This document shows positions 4,806 through 12,434 of a stretch of 48,636 bases of DNA, in pieces (the first letter of the stretch is position 1; the number at the start of each line of letters is the position of its first letter). The notes under the pieces were generated by a model. The model did no database searches. It was not told where the DNA came from and saw nothing but the letters and a program-made list of their open reading frames with translations. The stretch is taken from NCBI GenBank assembly GCA_035689115.1, contig DASSMA010000083.1, positions 1 through 48,636 on the forward strand, read 5' to 3'. A program made the translations under genes and the position numbers. This DNA comes from Acidimicrobiales bacterium. GTDB taxonomy: Bacteria; Actinomycetota; Acidimicrobiia; Acidimicrobiales; GCA-2861595.

Positions 4806-6581
4806 CTAATGACCCGGTTTCCGCCCCCTCCGCGAGCGCGCCACTCGCCCGATGGTCACCGGGGACAGCCGGGGTGGGATCCAGGGCGGCCTCGGTGTGG
4901 CCAGACGGTCGAGGGCGGTGGCGACCATCCAGTGGTGTCCCTGGGCGGCGTCGCAGCCGAGGGCGGTGAGGCAGGCGGCCTCGTCGGCGGTCTCGACGCC
5001 CTCGGCGACGGCCAGCATGTCGAGGGAGTGGGCGAGGTCGATCACCGCCGACAGCACGGCCTGCTTCCGGGGGTCGTGGTCGAGGCCGGTCACGAAGGCC
5101 CGGTCCAGCTTCAGCACGTCGACCGGCAGGTCGAGCAGCTTGGCCAGTGCCGAATAGCCGGTGCCGAAGTCGTCGACGCAGATGCGGATACCCCGCTCAC
5201 GGAGCATCCCGAGGAGGCGCGCCGCCGGCTCGAGGTTCATGAAGGCGCTCTCGGTGACCTCCAGCCAGAGGCTCCCCGGCTGCAGCCCGGTCTGGAGCAG
5301 GAGGCTGTCCACCATGGGCAGCAGGTCGGCGCCGAGGAGCTGCCGGGGCGCCACGTTGACCGACACCACGGCGTCGCCCACACCGAGTGCCGCCTGCAAG
5401 TCGGCGTGGTCGTGGCAGGCCTGCTGCAGGACCCAGCCCCCGAGCCGGGAGATCAGGTCTGCGTCCTCGGCCACGGCGATGAACTCCCCCGGGAACAGCA
5501 GCCCCCGGGAGGGGTGGTGCCAGCGGAGGAGGGCTTCGACCCCGAGCGGGCCACCGGTGGCGAGGTCGACGATCGACTGGTAGGCCAGGCCGAACTCGTC
5601 CCGGTTGAGGGCCCGCTGGAGGTCGTGCTCCATGTCGAGCCTGATCAGGGTCCGGTCCCGCAGGGTCTCGTCGAACACCTCGACCCGGTTGCGGCCCAGT
5701 TCCTTGGCGGCGTAGAGGGCCATGTCGGCGTTGCGGAGAAGCGCCTGCGGCTCTTCGAGCCCCCAGGAGAGCGCCACGCCGACGCTCGTGGCCGCGAAGA
5801 TCTCCCTGCCCGCCAGCCGGATGGGTTCGGCCAGGATGCCCCTGATGCGTTCGGCGAGGGCCCGCGCGTGCTCGACGCCGTCGATGCCCTCGCACAGGAC
5901 CAAGAACTCGTCGCCGCCGAGGCGGCCGGCCGTGTCACCGCCCCGGAGGGTGGAGGTCAGCCTGGCGGACATGGCGACCAGGAGCTGATCGCCGGCCTCG
6001 TGGCCCAGGCTGTCGTTGATCAGCTTGAAGCGGTCGACGTCGAGGAACAGCAGGCCGACCGCGCTGGGCTGGCGGGCCGTCCGCGCCAGCGCGACGCCGA
6101 GCCGGTCGAGGATGAGTGTCCGGTTGGGGAGGCCGGTCAGCGGGTCGTGGAGGGCCTGGTGGGCGAGGAGGAGCTGGCCGCGCTTGCGCTCGACGGCGTA
6201 GCGGACGGCCCGGGCCAGGAGGCTCCCGTCCAGCTGGTTCTTGAGGAGGTAGTCCTGGGCGCCCGCCTGCAGGGCCTGCAGCGCCAGGTCGGTGTCGTCC
6301 CGCCCGGTGATGACCACGACGGCGAGCTCCGGATCGTGCGCCTGGATCCGGGCCAGGCCGTCGAGGCGATCGGCGTCGGGCAGGGACAGATCGAGGATCA
6401 CGCAGTTGTGGACCCGGTTGTCGAGCACCTCGTACACGTCGGCGATGCGCTCGACGTGGGTCAGCAGCAGGTCGCCGCCCACCCAGGCGCGACGCAACAG
6501 CTCGGCGACGAGGCGGGCGTCGACCGGGGAGTCCTCGACGAGCAGGACCCCTTCGCCAACGGCCCCCGTCGCCGTTATCAC
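4806..6581 (-). CDS. Response-regulator receiver fused to GGDEF and EAL domains (diguanylate cyclase / phosphodiesterase)
   Basis: The REC domain reads 'VLLVEDSPVDARL...ILDLSLPD'; the GGDEF motif is intact ('RLGGDEFLVL'); the EAL domain is present ('GVEALLRW', 'EVTES'). The GTG at 6581..6579 overlaps the TGA of the receiver gene as GTGA. The ORF-track N-terminus up to 7232 is an out-of-frame shadow of the upstream gene. Confidence 0.9.
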   Translation of the reverse strand: MITATGAVGEGVLLVEDSPVDARLVAELLRRAWVGGDLLLTHVERIADVYEVLDNRVHNCVILDLSLPDADRLDGLARIQAHDPELAVVVITGRDDTDLALQALQAGAQDYLLKNQLDGSLLARAVRYAVERKRGQLLLAHQALHDPLTGLPNRTLILDRLGVALARTARQPSAVGLLFLDVDRFKLINDSLGHEAGDQLLVAMSARLTSTLRGGDTAGRLGGDEFLVLCEGIDGVEHARALAERIRGILAEPIRLAGREIFAATSVGVALSWGLEEPQALLRNADMALYAAKELGRNRVEVFDETLRDRTLIRLDMEHDLQRALNRDEFGLAYQSIVDLATGGPLGVEALLRWHHPSRGLLFPGEFIAVAEDADLISRLGGWVLQQACHDHADLQAALGVGDAVVSVNVAPRQLLGADLLPMVDSLLLQTGLQPGSLWLEVTESAFMNLEPAARLLGMLRERGIRICVDDFGTGYSALAKLLDLPVDVLKLDRAFVTGLDHDPRKQAVLSAVIDLAHSLDMLAVAEGVETADEAACLTALGCDAAQGHHWMVATALDRLATPRPPWIPPRLSPVTIGRVARSRRGRKPGH

Positions 6582-7036
6582 GTCACCGGCTCGGAGACGT
6601 CCCGGGGAAGCTCGACCACCTGGAGCCAGAACGCCTCGATCTTGCCGACGATCTCGACCAGCGCCCGGAAGTCGACGGGCTTGACGACGTAGCAGTTGGC
6701 GTGGAGGTTGTAGGCCCGCAGGATGTCCTCCTCCGCCTTCGACGTGGTGAGGATCACGACCGGGATGGCGCTGAGCACCGCGTCGAGGCGGATCGCCTCG
6801 AGCACCTCGTGGCCGGAGCGGCCGGGCAGGTTCAGGTCGAGGAGCACGAGGTCGGGCGGTGGCGTCCCGTCGTACTCGCCCCGCCCGTGGAGAGCGTCCA
6901 GCGCCAGGTCGGCGTCGCCGGCCACGACCAGCTGGTTGGCCACCTTGGAGCGCTGGAGCGCTTCCCGGGTGAGGCGGACGTCGCCCGGGCTGTCCTCCAC
7001 CAGGAGTATCCGGACGGCCCGGTGCGTGGCCGTCAC
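6578..7036 (-). CDS. Stand-alone response-regulator receiver (CheY-like)
   Basis: 'VRILLVEDSPGDVRLTREAL...LVLLDLNLPGRSGHEVLEAIR...VVILTTSKAEEDILRAYNLHANCYVVKP' is a receiver domain. The GTG at 7036 overlaps the histidine-kinase stop as GTGA. Confidence 0.85.
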   Translation of the reverse strand: MTATHRAVRILLVEDSPGDVRLTREALQRSKVANQLVVAGDADLALDALHGRGEYDGTPPPDLVLLDLNLPGRSGHEVLEAIRLDAVLSAIPVVILTTSKAEEDILRAYNLHANCYVVKPVDFRALVEIVGKIEAFWLQVVELPRDVSEPVT

Positions 7037-9000
7037 TGCTCCCACTCCACCGGAATCGTGAACCAGAAGGTCGCACCTCCGCCGGGCGTCGCCTCCACCC
7101 CGACGTGTCCGCCCCGCTGCTCGACCACCTTCTTGCAGATGGCCAGGCCCATGCCCGTGCCCGGGTACTCCGTCCGCCGCTGCAGGCGTTGGAACATCCC
7201 GAACACCCGCTCCCGGTAGGCGGGGTCGACACCGATGCCGTGGTCCTCGACCTCGAACCGCCACCCGCCCGGGACCCCGGTGGCGGACAGGCGCACCTCG
7301 GGTTCGACGCCGGGAAGGGTGAACTTCACGGCGTTGGCGACGAGGTTGTGGAGGACCTGGCGGGCCGGAACGGCGGCCCACGTGACCGACGGCAGCGGGT
7401 CGACGCGTACGCAGGTGCCCGGCTCGACGCCGGCCAGACCGGCGAGCACGTCGGCCGCCAGCTCCTCCATGTCGACCACCTCCGTGGCTTCGTGCTGCCC
7501 CGCCCGGGAGTACTCGAGCAGGTCGGCGACGAGCGCCTGCATGCGCTCGACTCCCGAGGTGATGAAGTCGAGATACTCGCGCCCGGGGCCGTCGAGCCGG
7601 GCGGCGTAGTCCTCCGCCAGGAGGCGGGCGAACCCGCTCACCACCCGGAGGGGCTCGCCCAGGTCGTGGGACGCCACGTAGGCCAGCTCGGCGAGGTCGT
7701 GGTTCGACCGCTCCAGTTCGCGGTTGCGCCGCTGGAGCTCGGCCTGGGCGGCTCGGCTCTCGCTCACGTCCCGCAGGATCACGGTGAACGTCGTCTGCCC
7801 GTCAGACGCCAGCTTGGAGATCGAGGCCTCGGCGGGGAACAGGGAGCCGTCGCGCCGGCGTCCCTGGATCCCGCCGCGACGGACACCCATGGGTCGGGCC
7901 ACGTCGGCGGCCGCCGCGAACTCCTCGACGTGGCGGCGGTGGACGTCGCCCAACGCCGCCGGGAGCAGCACGTCCAGGGGTTCACCCGTCACGTCGTCGG
8001 CGTCCCACCCGAAGATCCGTTCCGCGCCCTGGTTGAACTGGACGATGCGCTGCTGCTCGTCGACGCTGATGATGGCGTCCACCGCCAGGTCGACGAGGGC
8101 CGCCAACCGGGCTTCGGTGGTGCGGGCGAGCTGTTCGAGCTGGCGCTGGCGGCTGAGGTCGCGGATGACCGCCGAGGCGCCCACCACCGCTCCGGTCGCG
8201 TCGCGGACCGGCGATGCCGTGAGCGCCACCGCCACGAGCCGGCCGTCCTTGCGGAGGCGGACCGTGTCGAGGTCGTCGACCCGCTGGCCGGACCGGACCC
8301 GGGCGGTGACGCCGGCCAGTTCGCCTTCCCGTTCCGGCGGGACGATCACGCCGATGTTGTGGCCGACCACCTCGGGCTCGGACCATCCGAAGACGTGCTG
8401 GGCGCCGGCGTTCCAGCTGCGGATCGTCCCGTCGAGGTCCGTGCTCATCACCGCCACCGTCGTGGACCGGACGAGGGCCCCGAACTCGGCCAGGCGGTCC
8501 CGGGCCCGAACCAGTTCCGGGTGCGCGGCCCCCCCGCCGTCGTCGTCCCCGGGGAGGGAAGGCGGCGCCCCCGCCAGCCGGGCTGCCGGTGCGGGGCCTC
8601 CCTCGGGCGGCGGCGGAGCCAGGAGCTCCAGCATCCGCTCCGGCGTGGCGGTCTTCTCGATGTAGCCGTCGGCCCCCAGCGAGGCGACCTCGGCCGACAT
8701 CCGCGAGGCGGCGAAGCCCGACAGCACGACGACCCTGGCGGCGTTGGCCACTTCCTTGATGCGGGGGAGCGCCTCCAAGCCGTCCATGACCGGCATCGCC
8801 AGATCGAGAAGGACCAGGTCGGGCTGGAGGCGGTCGGCCAGCACGACGGCCTCCGCACCGTCCTCTGCCTCGCCGATCACGGTGAAGCGGCCGGTGCGTT
8901 CCAGCATCTTCCGCAGCAGCGTCCGGAGCCCGGAGGCGTCGTCGACGACGAGGACGCGGGTCGCGGTCGCCGGGGGGGCCTCGCCGAGGGTCGCGGTCAC
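7033..9000 (-). CDS. Hybrid sensor histidine kinase: N-terminal receiver, two PAS/PAC domains, HisKA, HATPase_c
   Basis: The REC domain reads 'RVLVVDDASG...LVLLDLAMPVMDG'. The H-box is 'ELAYVASHDLGEPLR', and the ATPase G-boxes are present ('HGIGVDPAY', 'GTGMGLAICK'). No transmembrane segment, so it is soluble. The GTG at 9000 overlaps the upstream stop as GTGA. Confidence 0.9.
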   Translation of the reverse strand: MTATLGEAPPATATRVLVVDDASGLRTLLRKMLERTGRFTVIGEAEDGAEAVVLADRLQPDLVLLDLAMPVMDGLEALPRIKEVANAARVVVLSGFAASRMSAEVASLGADGYIEKTATPERMLELLAPPPPEGGPAPAARLAGAPPSLPGDDDGGGAAHPELVRARDRLAEFGALVRSTTVAVMSTDLDGTIRSWNAGAQHVFGWSEPEVVGHNIGVIVPPEREGELAGVTARVRSGQRVDDLDTVRLRKDGRLVAVALTASPVRDATGAVVGASAVIRDLSRQRQLEQLARTTEARLAALVDLAVDAIISVDEQQRIVQFNQGAERIFGWDADDVTGEPLDVLLPAALGDVHRRHVEEFAAAADVARPMGVRRGGIQGRRRDGSLFPAEASISKLASDGQTTFTVILRDVSESRAAQAELQRRNRELERSNHDLAELAYVASHDLGEPLRVVSGFARLLAEDYAARLDGPGREYLDFITSGVERMQALVADLLEYSRAGQHEATEVVDMEELAADVLAGLAGVEPGTCVRVDPLPSVTWAAVPARQVLHNLVANAVKFTLPGVEPEVRLSATGVPGGWRFEVEDHGIGVDPAYRERVFGMFQRLQRRTEYPGTGMGLAICKKVVEQRGGHVGVEATPGGGATFWFTIPVEWEQ

Positions 9001-9595
9001 CTCGCGCCGGCGTCCTCGACCGGCCGGGCCGGGCGGTCGCGCAGCAGGTCACCGGGACGCGGCCGGCCGTCGAGGCGGGCGCTGCCGAGCAGGTCGCTGA
9101 TGAGGTCCCGGGCCGAGACCAGCGTGTGCTCGAGCGCTTCCTGGGAGGTCTGCTTCTCGTCGAGCAGGAGTGCGAGATGGGCCGCCGAGAGGCCCTGGAC
9201 GATCTCGTCGTTGATCTGGAGCGCCTGCCGCTGGCGCTCACGCAGGTCGTCGAACAGCTTGGCGCCCCGCATCAGGGGGCCGTACGTCCGCCGCAGTGAC
9301 CAGTAGTAGACGCCGATCGCCGCGGTGGAGAGGTCCCACACCGCCTCGTGCCAGTCGAGGTTGGTGCGAATCGCACTCCCGGCCACGCGGTCGAGGCCGA
9401 GCGTGGGCAACAGCAGGTGCTCGGCGTGCAGGGCGTGCCCGATGCCGCAGCGAAGAAGATCATCGCCGTCGCCAGGCCCAGCCGGTTGGACCTGACCTGG
9501 CCCGAGCGGGCGAGGGGTACGAGGACGGCGAGTGCGATGGCCATGTAGACGACGAACAGCATCAGATTGGCCACAAGCGTGAGCTTCCACCACAT
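8997..9595 (-). CDS. Membrane-anchored HisKA_3-like sensor remnant with no ATPase domain. The reading frame is broken by a -1 shift near 9439-9441.
   Basis: The 5' part (frame of ORF 9272..9769) encodes 'MWWKLTLVANLMLFVVYMAIALAVLV...MIFFAAASG'. The 3' part (frame of ORF 8997..9692) encodes 'HALHAEHLLL...ERQRQALQINDEIVQGLSAAHLAL'. Restoring one G in a GGG run joins them. 'ERQRQALQINDEIVQGLS' aligns to the DesK/NarX H-box 'ERERIARDLHDTLGQKLS' with His replaced by Asn. A GGAG lies 7-10 nt upstream of the ATG at 9595. Confidence 0.5.
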
Positions 9596-9756
9596 GGCGA
9601 CGCTCCATGAATAGGACTGGCCGGGCGCCAGGCCTGCTCCCGCGCGCGGAGGTGGTCCACCATTGTTGGGCCGGGCTGCCATGCACTGCCATAGCCCGGA
9701 CGGGTCATTTCCGCTGGTGCGCGGCGCCGGCCGCGGCGATAGCGTCGGCACCCGAG

Positions 9757-11229
9757 ATGGCTCCCGCACGAAGGCCCACGATCGGCCGAGCCCAGGTCGA
9801 GGCGGCGGTCTCGAAGCTGCAGGACCGCATCGGAGAGACGATGGCGAGGACGGGCGTGCCCGGGCTGGCGGCCGGCGTGGTCTTCGACGACGAGGTGATC
9901 CTGGCCCGCGGCTTCGGCGTGAGCGCCCTCGGCGGGTCCGACGAGGTCGGACCCGACACGGTGTTCCAGATCGCCTCGCTGTCGAAGTCGCTGGGGTCCT
10001 CGGTCATGTGCGCGCTGGTGCGGGAGGGGGCGCTGGCCTGGGACGACCCCGTGCGAACGGGGATCCCGGAGTTCGCGCTCGCGGACCCGTGGGTCTCCGA
10101 GCACGTCACCTTCGCCGATCTCTTCAGCCACCGCAGCGGGCTGCCCGAGCACGCCGGCGACCTGCTCGAGGATCTCGGCTACGACCGCGACACCGTGCTG
10201 GCGCGCCTTCGTCTCTACCCGCTCGCCCCCTTCCGGGCCTCCTACGGCTACACCAACTTCGGGTTGACCGCGGCGGGCGTGGCCGGCGCCGCCCGGGCCG
10301 GCACGACGTGGGAGGGCGCCTCGGAGGACCTCCTCTACAAGCCGCTCGGCATGGCCAGTACCAGCTCCACCTACGCAGGCTTCAGGTCGCGCCCGAACCG
10401 GGCCACCGGCCATGTCCGCCGGGACGGACGCTGGATGGTCACGCCCCAGCCCCGCCAGCCCGACGGCCAGTCGCCGGCGGGGGGCGTGTCGAGCAGCGTC
10501 GACGACCTGCTCCTGTGGCTGGCCACGATGCTCCGGGACGGCGCCACCGCCGGCGGGTACGTCGTCGACCCGGGAGCGCTGGCGCAGAGCTGGCTGCCGC
10601 ACGCCATCTCGAATCCGCCGGACGGTCCCACCGCCCGGGCCGGCTTCTACGGCCTCGGCTTGAACGTGGCCTACGATGGGGGCGGGCGGCTCCGCCTGGG
10701 CCACTCGGGCGCCTTCGCCCTCGGCGCGGGCACCGCCATGACGTTCTATCCGGCCGAGCGGATGGGCATCGTGGTGCTCACCAACGGCGAGCCCACCGGT
10801 GTGGCCGAGGCCACCACCGAGAGCTTCTGCGACGACGTGTTCCTCGGTGCACAGCGCAACGACTGGCTGGCGGTGATCGGCCCGTACTTCGACCGGCTGA
10901 TCCATCCGGCGCCGAAGAAGGACTTCGCCGCCGGAGGGGAAGCGGCCGGGCCCGAGGAGCGCTACACCGGCACCTACGACAGCGACCTGTACGGCCGGCT
11001 CGTGGTCGATGCCCGGCCGGGCGGCGGGTTGCAGCTCACGCTCGGTCCCGACCGGCACGCGTACCTGCTGCAACCACACGAGGGCGACGAGATGTGGTGG
11101 CAGTTCGCCGGCGAGAACGCGGGGCCGCCGGCGGCGGCGACGTTCACCGTGACCGCCGGCGATCGCGCCACCGCGGTGACGCTGGACCATTTCGACAGCG
11201 AGGGGCTGGGTACCTTCACCCGGCGTTGA
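9757..11229 (+). CDS. Serine hydrolase of the beta-lactamase / class-C PBP-like family
   Basis: The S-x-x-K motif is present ('QIASLSKSLGS'), followed by 'YGYTNFG' and 'GHSG'. The ATG at 9757 is chosen; the upstream part of the ORF looks non-coding. Confidence 0.8.
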   Translation: MAPARRPTIGRAQVEAAVSKLQDRIGETMARTGVPGLAAGVVFDDEVILARGFGVSALGGSDEVGPDTVFQIASLSKSLGSSVMCALVREGALAWDDPVRTGIPEFALADPWVSEHVTFADLFSHRSGLPEHAGDLLEDLGYDRDTVLARLRLYPLAPFRASYGYTNFGLTAAGVAGAARAGTTWEGASEDLLYKPLGMASTSSTYAGFRSRPNRATGHVRRDGRWMVTPQPRQPDGQSPAGGVSSSVDDLLLWLATMLRDGATAGGYVVDPGALAQSWLPHAISNPPDGPTARAGFYGLGLNVAYDGGGRLRLGHSGAFALGAGTAMTFYPAERMGIVVLTNGEPTGVAEATTESFCDDVFLGAQRNDWLAVIGPYFDRLIHPAPKKDFAAGGEAAGPEERYTGTYDSDLYGRLVVDARPGGGLQLTLGPDRHAYLLQPHEGDEMWWQFAGENAGPPAAATFTVTAGDRATAVTLDHFDSEGLGTFTRR

Positions 11230-11378: not shown

Positions 11379-12434
11379 GTGCCCGACCTGACCGCGACCC
11401 TCGCAGGCGCCGATGCCGCCCCCGCACCCCGGCCCGGCCCCCGTCTCCCGCTGCCCCGTGGGCCGCGGAGCGAGCGACTGGTCGCCGTGCTCCGGCGCCG
11501 ACCACACGATCCGGGGCGGCTGCCCGACGGAGACGACGCCCTCGACGGCGAGGACACCCCGCTGGCGATCCACGTCCTCTACGAGCTCCACTACCGCGGG
11601 TTCGACGGGGTGGACGAGCGCTGGGAATGGGAGCCCGGCCTGCTGCGCGAGCGCCGCCGTCTCGAGGAGGAGTTCGAGGGCCGCCTCGTCGCCACCGTCG
11701 GGCCACCCCCGATCGCGCCGACCGCGAACGAGGTCACCGGCGAGCTCGACGGCCTCCTCCACCGGGAGTGCCCCTCGCTGTCGCGGTGGATCCTCGAGCA
11801 CGGCGGCCTGCGGGAGCTTCGGGAGCTGGCGGTCCATCGCTCGATCTACCAGCTCCGGGAGGCCGATTCCCACACGTTCGCCATCCCGCGCCTGTTCGGC
11901 GGGCCCAAAGCGGCACTGGTCGAGATCCAGCGGGGCGAGTACGGCGACGGCGCTCCGGCCGGCGTGCACGCCGAGGTCTTCGGCGAGACCATGGTGGCGC
12001 TCGGGCTCGACGCCACCTACGGCGCTTATCTCGACCACACCCCGGGCACCACCCTGTCGACGGTCAACCTGGTCGACCTGTTCGGGCTCCACCGGCGCTG
12101 GCGCGGAGCCCTCGCCGGCCATCTCGCCCACTTCGAGATGGCGTCCGCCGTCCCCATGGGCCGGTACGCCGCCGCGCTGCGGGCCGCCGGGCGACCCAGC
12201 GCGGCGCGCTTCTACGACCTCCACGTGGAGGCCGACGCCCACCACGGGCCGGTCGGGCGCGACCTGCTCGCCGCCGGCCTGGCCCGCGTCGAACCGGCCG
12301 TCGCCGGCGACATCGTGTTCGGGGCGCGGGCCCTGGCCGCCGTGGAAGACCGCTTCGCAACGGCGATCATGGAACGCTGGGCGTGCGGCGATTCGTCCCT
12401 GCGCCGGCCCATCCGCTGCGACGGCGGGACATGA
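11379..12434 (+). CDS. Iron-containing redox enzyme family protein (haem-oxygenase-like fold)
   Basis: 'HVLYELHYRGFDGVDERWEWEPGLL...GEYGDG...HAEVF' is typical of this actinobacterial family. The stop overlaps the next ATG as ATGA. Confidence 0.65.
   Translation: MPDLTATLAGADAAPAPRPGPRLPLPRGPRSERLVAVLRRRPHDPGRLPDGDDALDGEDTPLAIHVLYELHYRGFDGVDERWEWEPGLLRERRRLEEEFEGRLVATVGPPPIAPTANEVTGELDGLLHRECPSLSRWILEHGGLRELRELAVHRSIYQLREADSHTFAIPRLFGGPKAALVEIQRGEYGDGAPAGVHAEVFGETMVALGLDATYGAYLDHTPGTTLSTVNLVDLFGLHRRWRGALAGHLAHFEMASAVPMGRYAAALRAAGRPSAARFYDLHVEADAHHGPVGRDLLAAGLARVEPAVAGDIVFGARALAAVEDRFATAIMERWACGDSSLRRPIRCDGGT

Follow-up and report, generated by a model that had tools for sequence, protein, structure and literature searches.

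A conserved family of small, ATPase-less membrane proteins with a HisKA_3-type hairpin and a receiver partner in Actinomycetota

Is a membrane protein with the helical hairpin of a sensor kinase, which has Asn in place of the phospho-acceptor His and no ATPase domain, the remnant of a decayed kinase or a sensor in its own right, and in the latter case, on what does it act? This question is raised by a gene on the minus strand of contig DASSMA010000083.1 (assembly GCA_035689115.1). The whole stretch of DNA that was analyzed, called the window below, is this contig in its full length of 48,636 nt, from a metagenome-assembled genome of Acidimicrobiales. The gene, called the sensor gene here, heads an operon of signaling genes, and it gives a membrane protein only when two reading frames are joined. 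A prediction made from the letters alone, without database searches (the original prediction), had described its product as a 'degenerate' HisKA_3 module that could regulate the downstream soluble kinase by protein contact.

A conserved family and a frameshift in one copy

The sensor gene is a member of a widespread, conserved and uncharacterized family of small membrane proteins and is not a decayed kinase, because intact relatives of about 195 residues are encoded in 414 species genomes. These genomes were found in a scan of one genome per GTDB species and are mostly Actinomycetota; the taxa with relatives are Acidimicrobiia, Mycobacteriales/Frankiales, Nocardioidaceae, Solirubrobacterales, and some Chloroflexota and Dormibacterota. 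The repaired window protein had 316 matches among 5.8 billion proteins searched. Nearly all of the best 120 of these matches have 193–204 residues, are 51–69% identical to the window protein and carry no kinase domain, and the closest intact homologue, P0001, is 69% identical (BLASTP local alignment). When 1.84 billion representatives of 50%-identity clusters were searched, 1373 matched at E ≤ 1e-3. Cultured carriers include Nocardioides psychrotolerans (intact copy WP_091116938.1, for example), N. abyssi, N. marmorisolisilvae, N. deserti and Marmoricola sp. RAF53. The cultured-strain members are labeled 'hypothetical protein' in RefSeq, and some Nocardioides members carry the automatic UniProt name 'histidine kinase subgroup 3 dimerisation and phosphoacceptor'.

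The replacement of the His is a property of the family. Asn129, which stands at the phospho-acceptor position, is found in 81 of the 82 distinct close relatives, and Asp130 and Gln134 are found in all 82, so that the module called 'degenerate' in the original prediction is a conserved one instead. The sole His among the 82 belongs to a protein from a metagenome-assembled genome of Jatrophihabitans sp. (L070:5001-5624), which reads ELHDAVLQGM at this site, is otherwise typical and is followed by a REC-HisKA-HATPase gene; this His may have arisen by reversion or may have been kept from an ancestor. In a wider set of 95 standalone representatives (≤260 residues) of 50%-identity clusters, 59 have Asn at the H-box position, 24 have His and 12 have some other residue. 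The Asp is kept in 85 and the Gln in 82 of the 95, and the two are kept jointly in 53 of the 59 Asn-type and 22 of the 24 His-type representatives. None of the standalone forms has an ATPase domain, and this includes three His-type members that were looked up, whose next gene encodes REC-HisKA-HATPase or a single-domain receiver (REC). Because the His-type members are also without the ATPase, the ATPase-less architecture is family-wide and the His is dispensable for the common function. Orthologues with both a canonical His and an attached ATPase domain, which the original prediction had named as the sign of a truncated pseudogene, were not encountered. A side observation concerns P0161 (426 residues), in which the whole module of membrane domain and hairpin is duplicated in tandem; its first copy has the His-containing box EVHDGIVQDL, and its second copy has the degenerate box RRMQDTTVQHL.

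The sensor gene extends from the ATG at 9595 to the TGA at 8999-8997 on the minus strand. Residues 1-48 (MWWKLTLVANLMLFVVYMAIALAVLVPLARSGQVRSNRLGLATAMIFF) are read from 9595..9452 in the first frame, codon 49 lacks one base (Table 1), and from Cys50 onward the reading continues in the frame that ends at 8997. When one base is inserted in codon 49, a protein of 199 residues with three transmembrane helices is obtained, in agreement with the roughly 200 residues and two or three helices of the original prediction. At the codon-49/50 site, the homologues read T/S/A-Cys, and all of the 83 complete homologous genes from other loci are intact, which settles the orthologue comparison that the prediction had called for and means that the frameshift is peculiar to the Acidimicrobiales contig. 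Because of the frameshift, the annotation in the source record is restricted to the C-terminal part, a 137-residue hypothetical protein (P0002) that begins at an internal start codon. In the region 9272..9769 (-), the N-terminal half of the sensor, including transmembrane helices 1-2, is unannotated there. Programmed frameshifting at the deletion was considered and rejected; on inspection, TTC TTC GC TGC contains no slippery heptamer, and the homologues are all in frame.

Two readings of the frameshift have to be weighed. According to one, the gene is a truncated or decayed HisKA_3 kinase pseudogene that lost its His and ATPase and became non-functional, which is what the frameshift in the window copy and the annotation of a mere 137-residue fragment would suggest. 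This reading is already contradicted at the family level, and we regard it as scarcely tenable: the ATPase-less architecture of about 195 residues is conserved across the 414 species genomes and is shared by the relatives that keep the His, the family alignment has many invariant columns, and the position of the stop is constant and overlaps the start of the next gene in most loci. The window copy itself has every invariant residue of the family, one missing base aside. According to the other reading, which we consider possible and still somewhat unlikely, the family is functional, and the one-base deletion is real and has truly inactivated or re-wired the Acidimicrobiales copy. The products would then be a 48-residue N-terminal stub with an out-of-frame tail or the sensor-less 137-residue C-terminal fragment, and the kinase gene would lose its translational coupling. 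The deletion is present in the deposited contig, outside any long homopolymer, and the intact state of all 83 complete homologous genes elsewhere also fits a real lesion in this copy. However, a consensus or assembly error in the metagenome-assembled genome accounts for the data equally well. In addition, no second lesion was seen in the window copy and all the conserved residues are kept; therefore, any inactivation would be very recent.

The hairpin and its receiver partner

The hairpin carries ERQRQALQINDEIVQGL, and the motif ERQRQALQINDEIVQGLSAAHLAL covers residues 120-143 (9239..9168), with the H-box equivalent at E120-L143. Asn129 (9212-9210) occupies the position of the phospho-acceptor His, and D130 (9209-9207) and Q134 (9197-9195) form a DxxxQ motif. 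On profile evidence, the hairpin is homologous to the dimerization and histidine phosphotransfer (DHp) domain of the HisKA_3 type found in DesK/NarX-type kinases. An hmmsearch with a profile of the C-terminal region over all open reading frames of 85 related loci and the window gave no significant non-family matches because few HisKA_3 kinases occur in those loci; therefore, genuine HisKA_3 domains were gathered by a separate database search, and the DHp regions of 114 proteins with both PF07730 and HATPase_c were excised as the reference set. The hhalign comparison of the C-terminal region of the 82 family sequences with these 114 domains gave a probability of 91.9% (P 7e-7, 52 columns), in a register that places Asn129 on the phospho-acceptor His and Asp130/Gln134 on DxxxQ. 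Here, the family sequence E-R-x-R-Q-A-L-E-I-N-D-x-V-V-Q-G-L is paired with E-E-R-x-R-L-A-R-E-l-H-D-x-x-x-Q-x-L, so that the H-box resemblance with Asn for His noted in the original prediction holds as a HisKA_3 derivation. As controls, the same query gave a probability of 2.5% when compared with the partner kinases' HisKA domains and of 0.6% with the HisKA_3 alignment reversed, and none of 20 column shuffles exceeded 3.3%. Sub-threshold PF07730 matches were obtained for 21 of 29 family members, with a best E of 7e-4; the scores listed are 12.7-19 bits (E about 2e-3 to 0.2). The members with listed coordinates share one register, in which model position 1 falls on residue 121 and the model His falls on the Asn.

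As predicted, Pfam finds no HATPase_c domain in the repaired window protein, and an NCBIfam scan of it gave noise only. The protein ends about 30 residues past the hairpin, as do the homologues listed at about 195 residues. The AlphaFold2 model of P0001 has a mean predicted local distance difference test (pLDDT) score of 83.9 and consists of helices at residues 2-30, 38-66, 70-79, 82-144 and 148-170; over residues 101-170, the block-mean pLDDT is 74-90. In this model, transmembrane helix 3 runs unbroken into the first helix of the hairpin.

The conserved partner of the sensor is the N-terminal receiver of the next gene and not the kinase, because 79 of 83 loci have the receiver and the domains that follow it vary. 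In these 79 loci, the next gene opens with a receiver similar to that of the window (blastp E 1e-13 to 1e-40, with 1e-22 or better for 77 of the 79), and in most loci the partner gene begins 3 nt upstream of the sensor gene's end. The receiver is followed by HisKA-HATPase mostly, by PAS-GGDEF-EAL in some loci and by nothing in others (proteins of 144-178 residues). The active-site residues D20, D21, D66, S94 and K116 are kept in 78 of 78 partner receivers (D20/D21 in 77 of 77, with one gap). Because the acidic pair, the acceptor Asp, the Ser and the Lys are all kept, the partner receivers are competent and not pseudo-receivers; among solved structures, CheY proteins and NarL are closest to them. 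Sensor, hairpin and receiver are also joined in one chain in three natural fusion proteins (P0171, P0218 and P0225, of 333-342 residues). These have lost the Cys/His residues of helix 2 and have V, L or A at the 'His' position, yet they retain the Asp and Gln and the active site of the receiver, and they resemble sensor-blind variants with constitutive tethering. An AlphaFold2 model of P0171, built from a 3-sequence alignment to view receiver docking, was unusable (mean pLDDT 60, hairpin below 50). The proposal in the original prediction that the protein regulates the downstream kinase by contact is thus upheld as to a DHp-only sensor and altered as to its target, since the receiver is what is conserved and the DxxxQ motif points to its dephosphorylation more than to an unspecific protein contact.

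As shown in Table 1, the sensor gene of the window is followed by genes for a soluble kinase with an N-terminal receiver, a single-domain receiver and a REC-GGDEF-EAL protein, the last of which is likely the output of the cascade through turnover of cyclic di-GMP (c-di-GMP). The four genes (9595..8997, 9000..7033, 7036..6578 and 6581..4806) bear out the membrane-anchored head of a signaling operon that had been predicted. Within this operon (4806..9595, minus strand), identical 4-nt GTGA overlaps occur at 9000-8997, 7036-7033 and 6581-6578, which points to strict translational coupling; if the frameshift in the first gene is real, it would have a polar effect on the other three. GGDEF/EAL domains are encoded nearby in 18 of 85 related loci. 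In four loci of Dormibacterota or Chloroflexota (L025, L028, L054 and L056), the partner is REC-PAS-GGDEF(-EAL) with no kinase, and the sensor therefore appears to be wired directly to a c-di-GMP enzyme via the receiver. The divergent neighbors in the window encode a beta-lactamase-family serine hydrolase with DUF3471 (9757..11229, plus strand) and a Haem_oxygenas_2 'iron-containing redox enzyme' (11379..12434, plus strand); in the related loci, no conserved association with the sensor was found for this hydrolase, the Haem_oxygenas_2 enzyme, an RDD protein or TetR.

Table 1. Positions of the sensor gene, its parts and the genes coupled to it (positions of the window)
Feature	Position	Strand	Remark
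Repaired sensor gene (199-residue membrane protein)	8997..9595	-	ETR1_N-like three-helix sensor and His-less, ATPase-less HisKA_3-type hairpin (from profile matches)
ETR1_N (PF25487) match, residues 4-72, transmembrane helices 1-2	9381..9586	-	N10, Y17, I20, C50, H54, H57, H60
Frameshift site	9447..9451	-	Codon 49 is GC only (9451-9450), then the conserved Cys50 codon TGC (9449-9447)
Transmembrane helix 3, about residues 82-104	9285..9353	-	Conserved D88; AlphaFold2 helix 82-144, running on into the cytoplasmic part
HisKA_3-like helical hairpin, residues about 106-170	9087..9281	-	hhalign 91.9%; in-register sub-threshold PF07730 matches
GTGA stop/start overlap, sensor TGA with GTG of next gene (translational coupling)	8997..9000	-	Same 4-nt overlap in most of 83 loci
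Partner gene REC-PAS-PAS-HisKA-HATPase_c, 655 residues	7033..9000	-	Pfam; receiver residues 16-127, about 8955..8620
Single-domain receiver gene	6578..7036	-	GTG start overlaps kinase stop (GTGA)
REC-GGDEF-EAL gene	4806..6581	-	GTG start overlaps preceding stop (GTGA)

The membrane part and ethylene receptors

The membrane part, with an ETR1_N (ethylene-receptor-like) domain and a Cys/His metal site, was overlooked in the original prediction. Judging from its Pfam matches, it appears to be related to the ethylene-binding domain of ETR1-type receptors, with a putative ligand-binding role. The ETR1_N model gives E 3.6e-6 and 27.6 bits for the window protein, a marginal pass of the cut-off of 27, and it matches 28 of 29 family members at E ≤ 10, with listed scores of 17-28.4 bits. 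The three transmembrane helices include a Cys-x3-His pair in helix 2, the copper-ligand pair of ETR1. Helix 2 reads F-F-T-C-A-V-H-H-G-x-H-x-V-H, in which Cys50 is conserved in 81, His54 in 82, His57 in 81 and His60 in 75 of the 82 sequences; H57 and H60 are extra His residues, spaced every 3 residues after the Cys-x3-His pair.

The alignment with the Arabidopsis receptor AtETR1 is gapless from helix 1 through helix 2 and equates N10 with D25, Y17 with Y32, I20 with I35, C50 with C65 and H54 with H69. The numbering of the AtETR1 sequence used reproduces the published D25, Y32, I35, P36, I62, C65, H69 and K91. Among the seven ethylene-binding positions of AtETR1, the Y, I, C and H are kept, and at the position of D25, the family has Asn in 76 and Asp in 3 of 82 sequences. 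The hhalign comparison of the N-terminal domain with the single AtETR1 sequence was weak (8%, P 0.004), in the expected register; the weight for the ETR1 relation is placed on the Pfam ETR1_N matches. In ETR1, the copper ligands are Cys65 and His69, and a natural variant with Asp25 changed to Asn has an ethylene affinity about 100-fold lower (PMC10266040, PMC11971883).

Other proteins have this membrane module (residues 1 to about 125) joined to HisKA-HATPase(-REC-Hpt), PAS-kinase or (PAS-)GGDEF-EAL, and because its outputs are so varied, it is a genuine, reusable input domain. The fusions P0139, P0208, P0232, P0177, P0173, P0192 and others have the ETR1_N-like domain and a conserved juxtamembrane sequence, YYWSLRRTYGxLMxGAxLFEDL, followed by HisKA-HATPase-REC(-Hpt) hybrid kinases or (PAS-)GGDEF-EAL. 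They constitute a sizeable, unstudied family of sensor domains.

Candidate mechanism and known systems

The sensor probably signals by binding or dephosphorylating its partner receiver, because the next gene almost always starts with a receiver domain. The best explanation, in which we have moderate confidence, is that it is a ligand-gated receiver phosphatase that controls the downstream kinase or c-di-GMP cascade. The hairpin would dimerize into a four-helix bundle and dock the receiver as a HisKA_3 kinase docks its regulator, and it would be unable to phosphorylate it. Asp130 and Gln134 would position a water molecule that hydrolyzes the acyl-phosphate of the receiver, which would make the protein a sensor-gated receiver phosphatase, and occupancy of the ligand or metal site would switch this activity on or off through a rotation or piston movement of helix 3. 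The receiver lies at the N-terminus of the soluble PAS-PAS kinase, and therefore its phosphorylation state would set the kinase activity; the kinase would in turn act on the two downstream receivers (single-domain REC and REC-GGDEF-EAL), leading to control of c-di-GMP.

Precedents for such chemistry exist. The phosphatase activity of NarX requires the DxxxQ motif, which is conserved in HisKA_3 (PMC3510030, citing Huynh et al. 2010), and CheZ uses the same Asp/Gln pair as NarX for the hydrolytic water (PMC3510030). When DesK and DesR form the phosphatase complex, the buried His188 pairs with its twin, more than 18 Å away from the Asp of the receiver; Asp189 makes contact with the regulator, and the hydrolytic water is positioned by Gln193 (PMC5231405). 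Asn129 may imitate this buried His pair and hold the bundle in the phosphatase state of DesK.

Three other modes of action are to be compared with the receiver-phosphatase explanation. The synteny, the fusions and the conservation of the receiver would be explained just as well if the hairpin merely docked on the receiver, as DivL does, possibly depending on its phosphorylation state and without hydrolysis, so that a soluble kinase or another effector would be tethered to the membrane and allosterically regulated. DivL is a precedent for a pseudo-kinase module that reads the state of a response regulator (PMC4211667), and some operons have no kinase at all. Against docking stands the invariance of Asp130 and Gln134 (82 of 82), which is predicted by a catalytic role (PMC3510030, PMC5231405), since binding is usually more tolerant; this argument is tempered by the fact that Asp189 of DesK also makes a regulator-binding contact. 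Taken together, docking remains doubtful, with a substantial minority share of our expectation. The same receiver evidence speaks against the idea of a hetero-oligomer between the hairpin and the downstream kinase's own HisKA domain, in which autophosphorylation of the kinase would be blocked or activated. This idea corresponds to the protein-protein regulation proposed earlier, and both partners are helical hairpins; however, the kinase core is missing or replaced in many loci and the receiver is present in 79 of 83, and the HisKA_3-like hairpin does not resemble the HisKA domains of the partners at the profile level (2.5%). Such hetero-oligomerization is therefore very improbable. Equally remote is a phosphotransfer protein similar to Spo0B or a split kinase, in which the hairpin accepts or relays a phosphoryl group with the ATPase supplied in trans. 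It could fit the 24 of 95 standalone representatives with a perfect HDxxxQ box including the His, but the Asn of the window protein and of 81 of the 82 close relatives is not phosphorylatable in such chemistry, the cytoplasmic part contains no other conserved His, and those His-type members that are paired with a single-domain receiver lack an ATPase in their operon.

Several observations weigh against a ligand-gated receiver phosphatase. Phosphatase activity, receiver binding, dimerization and ligand binding are all inferred for every member. About a quarter of the standalone representatives retain the His, so that some members may carry out phosphotransfer and the common function may differ from hydrolysis. 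Some operons consist of the sensor and a single-domain receiver only. In the Acidimicrobiales assembly, the sensor gene is frameshifted, and the sensor may be inactive there. As for the domain assignments, Pfam HisKA_3 (PF07730) gives no match on the window protein even at E ≤ 10, and its cut-off of 24 bits was reached by no family member tested; the hmmscan proposed with the original prediction is therefore negative for this protein, and the relationship is seen only by family-level and profile-profile tests. A search of PDB chain sequences with the family profile returned only a designed helical repeat at E 6.5, and a Foldseek search of the AlphaFold2 model against the PDB returned none at E ≤ 0.001, the matches being unrelated helical proteins. 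The ETR1_N match sits at the threshold (27.6 against 27 bits), and two of the seven ethylene-binding residues are not conserved, the equivalent of P36 being variable and that of I62 being Phe.

In the usual two-component picture, a sensor kinase acts on a receiver. In the present family, the sensor and the helices that dock the receiver are all that is left of such a kinase; the ATPase is gone and, in most members, so is the His, but the two residues known to catalyze dephosphorylation of receivers are preserved. The individual pieces, namely an ETR1_N-like sensor, a HisKA_3 hairpin, the DxxxQ motif and a receiver, are already known. The literature that was searched contained no description of a standalone, ATPase-less and mostly His-less DHp sensor with a receiver, nor of ethylene-receptor-like domains in Actinomycetota; the surveys of ethylene-receptor domains cited here mention cyanobacteria and proteobacteria and not Actinomycetota (PMC7700396, PMC11819568). 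The most far-reaching proposal, to which we give little credence as a whole, is a membrane receptor in soil and freshwater Actinomycetota and in some Chloroflexota and Dormibacterota that depends on copper or another metal, has no kinase activity itself and binds ethylene or a different small ligand, either unsaturated or gaseous. The ligand would gate the His-less DHp hairpin, which would remove the phosphate from the receiver that belongs to a soluble kinase or a c-di-GMP enzyme. If this is true, the family would be a 'phosphatase-only' two-component sensor with a signaling logic so far undescribed, and the sister clades with His and with Asn would be a natural experiment in the conversion of a kinase scaffold into a dedicated phosphatase. 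If the mode of action proposed above as the best explanation is right, membrane signals can enter a phosphorelay purely by regulated dephosphorylation or docking of a receiver; the 'orphan' receiver-first kinases (REC-HisKA-HATPase) would have to be reinterpreted, and the ethylene-receptor-like membrane sensor domains would be extended to Actinomycetota. Cultured Nocardioides carry intact copies, and the idea is therefore directly testable.

Among the known systems, DesK of Bacillus subtilis and NarX/NarQ of E. coli are similar in that their last transmembrane helix likewise runs into DHp helix 1 without a break. The H-box, E-R-x-R-x-A-x-E-[IL]-x-D-x-x-x-Q-G-L with DxxxQ, the profile similarity of the hairpin to HisKA_3 and the CheY/NarL-like receiver partner encoded adjacently are also as in DesK/NarX. 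Unlike these kinases, the family protein has no HATPase_c and does not reach the Pfam HisKA_3 threshold, and its partner receiver is part of a kinase, a c-di-GMP enzyme or a single-domain protein instead of a NarL-type DNA-binding regulator. With Asn for the phospho-acceptor His and no HATPase_c, autophosphorylation and phosphotransfer would be impossible, in contrast to DesK/NarX. The split kinase HK1/HK2 (Rv0600c/Rv0601c) of Mycobacterium tuberculosis and Spo0B also have DHp-type hairpins without an ATPase of their own, and these keep the His and transfer phosphate, which is not possible for the window protein without the His.

By analogy only, the family resembles the auxiliary receiver phosphatases of the CheZ type, which have DxxxQ on a dimer of helical hairpins, in being small kinase-less hairpin proteins with Asp-x3-Gln; CheZ is soluble and chemotaxis-specific, whereas the family protein is membrane-embedded, has its own sensor domain and is HisKA_3-derived. 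With ETR1 of Arabidopsis, SynEtr1 of Synechocystis and AzoEtr1 of Azospirillum, it shares an N-terminal three-helix ETR1_N domain and a two-component-type output. It differs from these receptors in the extra His residues of helix 2 (C-x2-H-H-x2-H-x2-H), in having neither a GAF domain nor a kinase, and in that a partner of Lys91 is not evident and a conserved Asp88 is found in helix 3 instead. In DivL of Caulobacter, a kinase-derived module without the phospho-acceptor His acts by interaction with a receiver (PMC4211667). DivL is a large protein of the HisKA type with multiple PAS domains, Tyr in place of the His and the full DHp and ATPase fold, whereas here the DHp hairpin stands alone and its DxxxQ motif is strictly kept.

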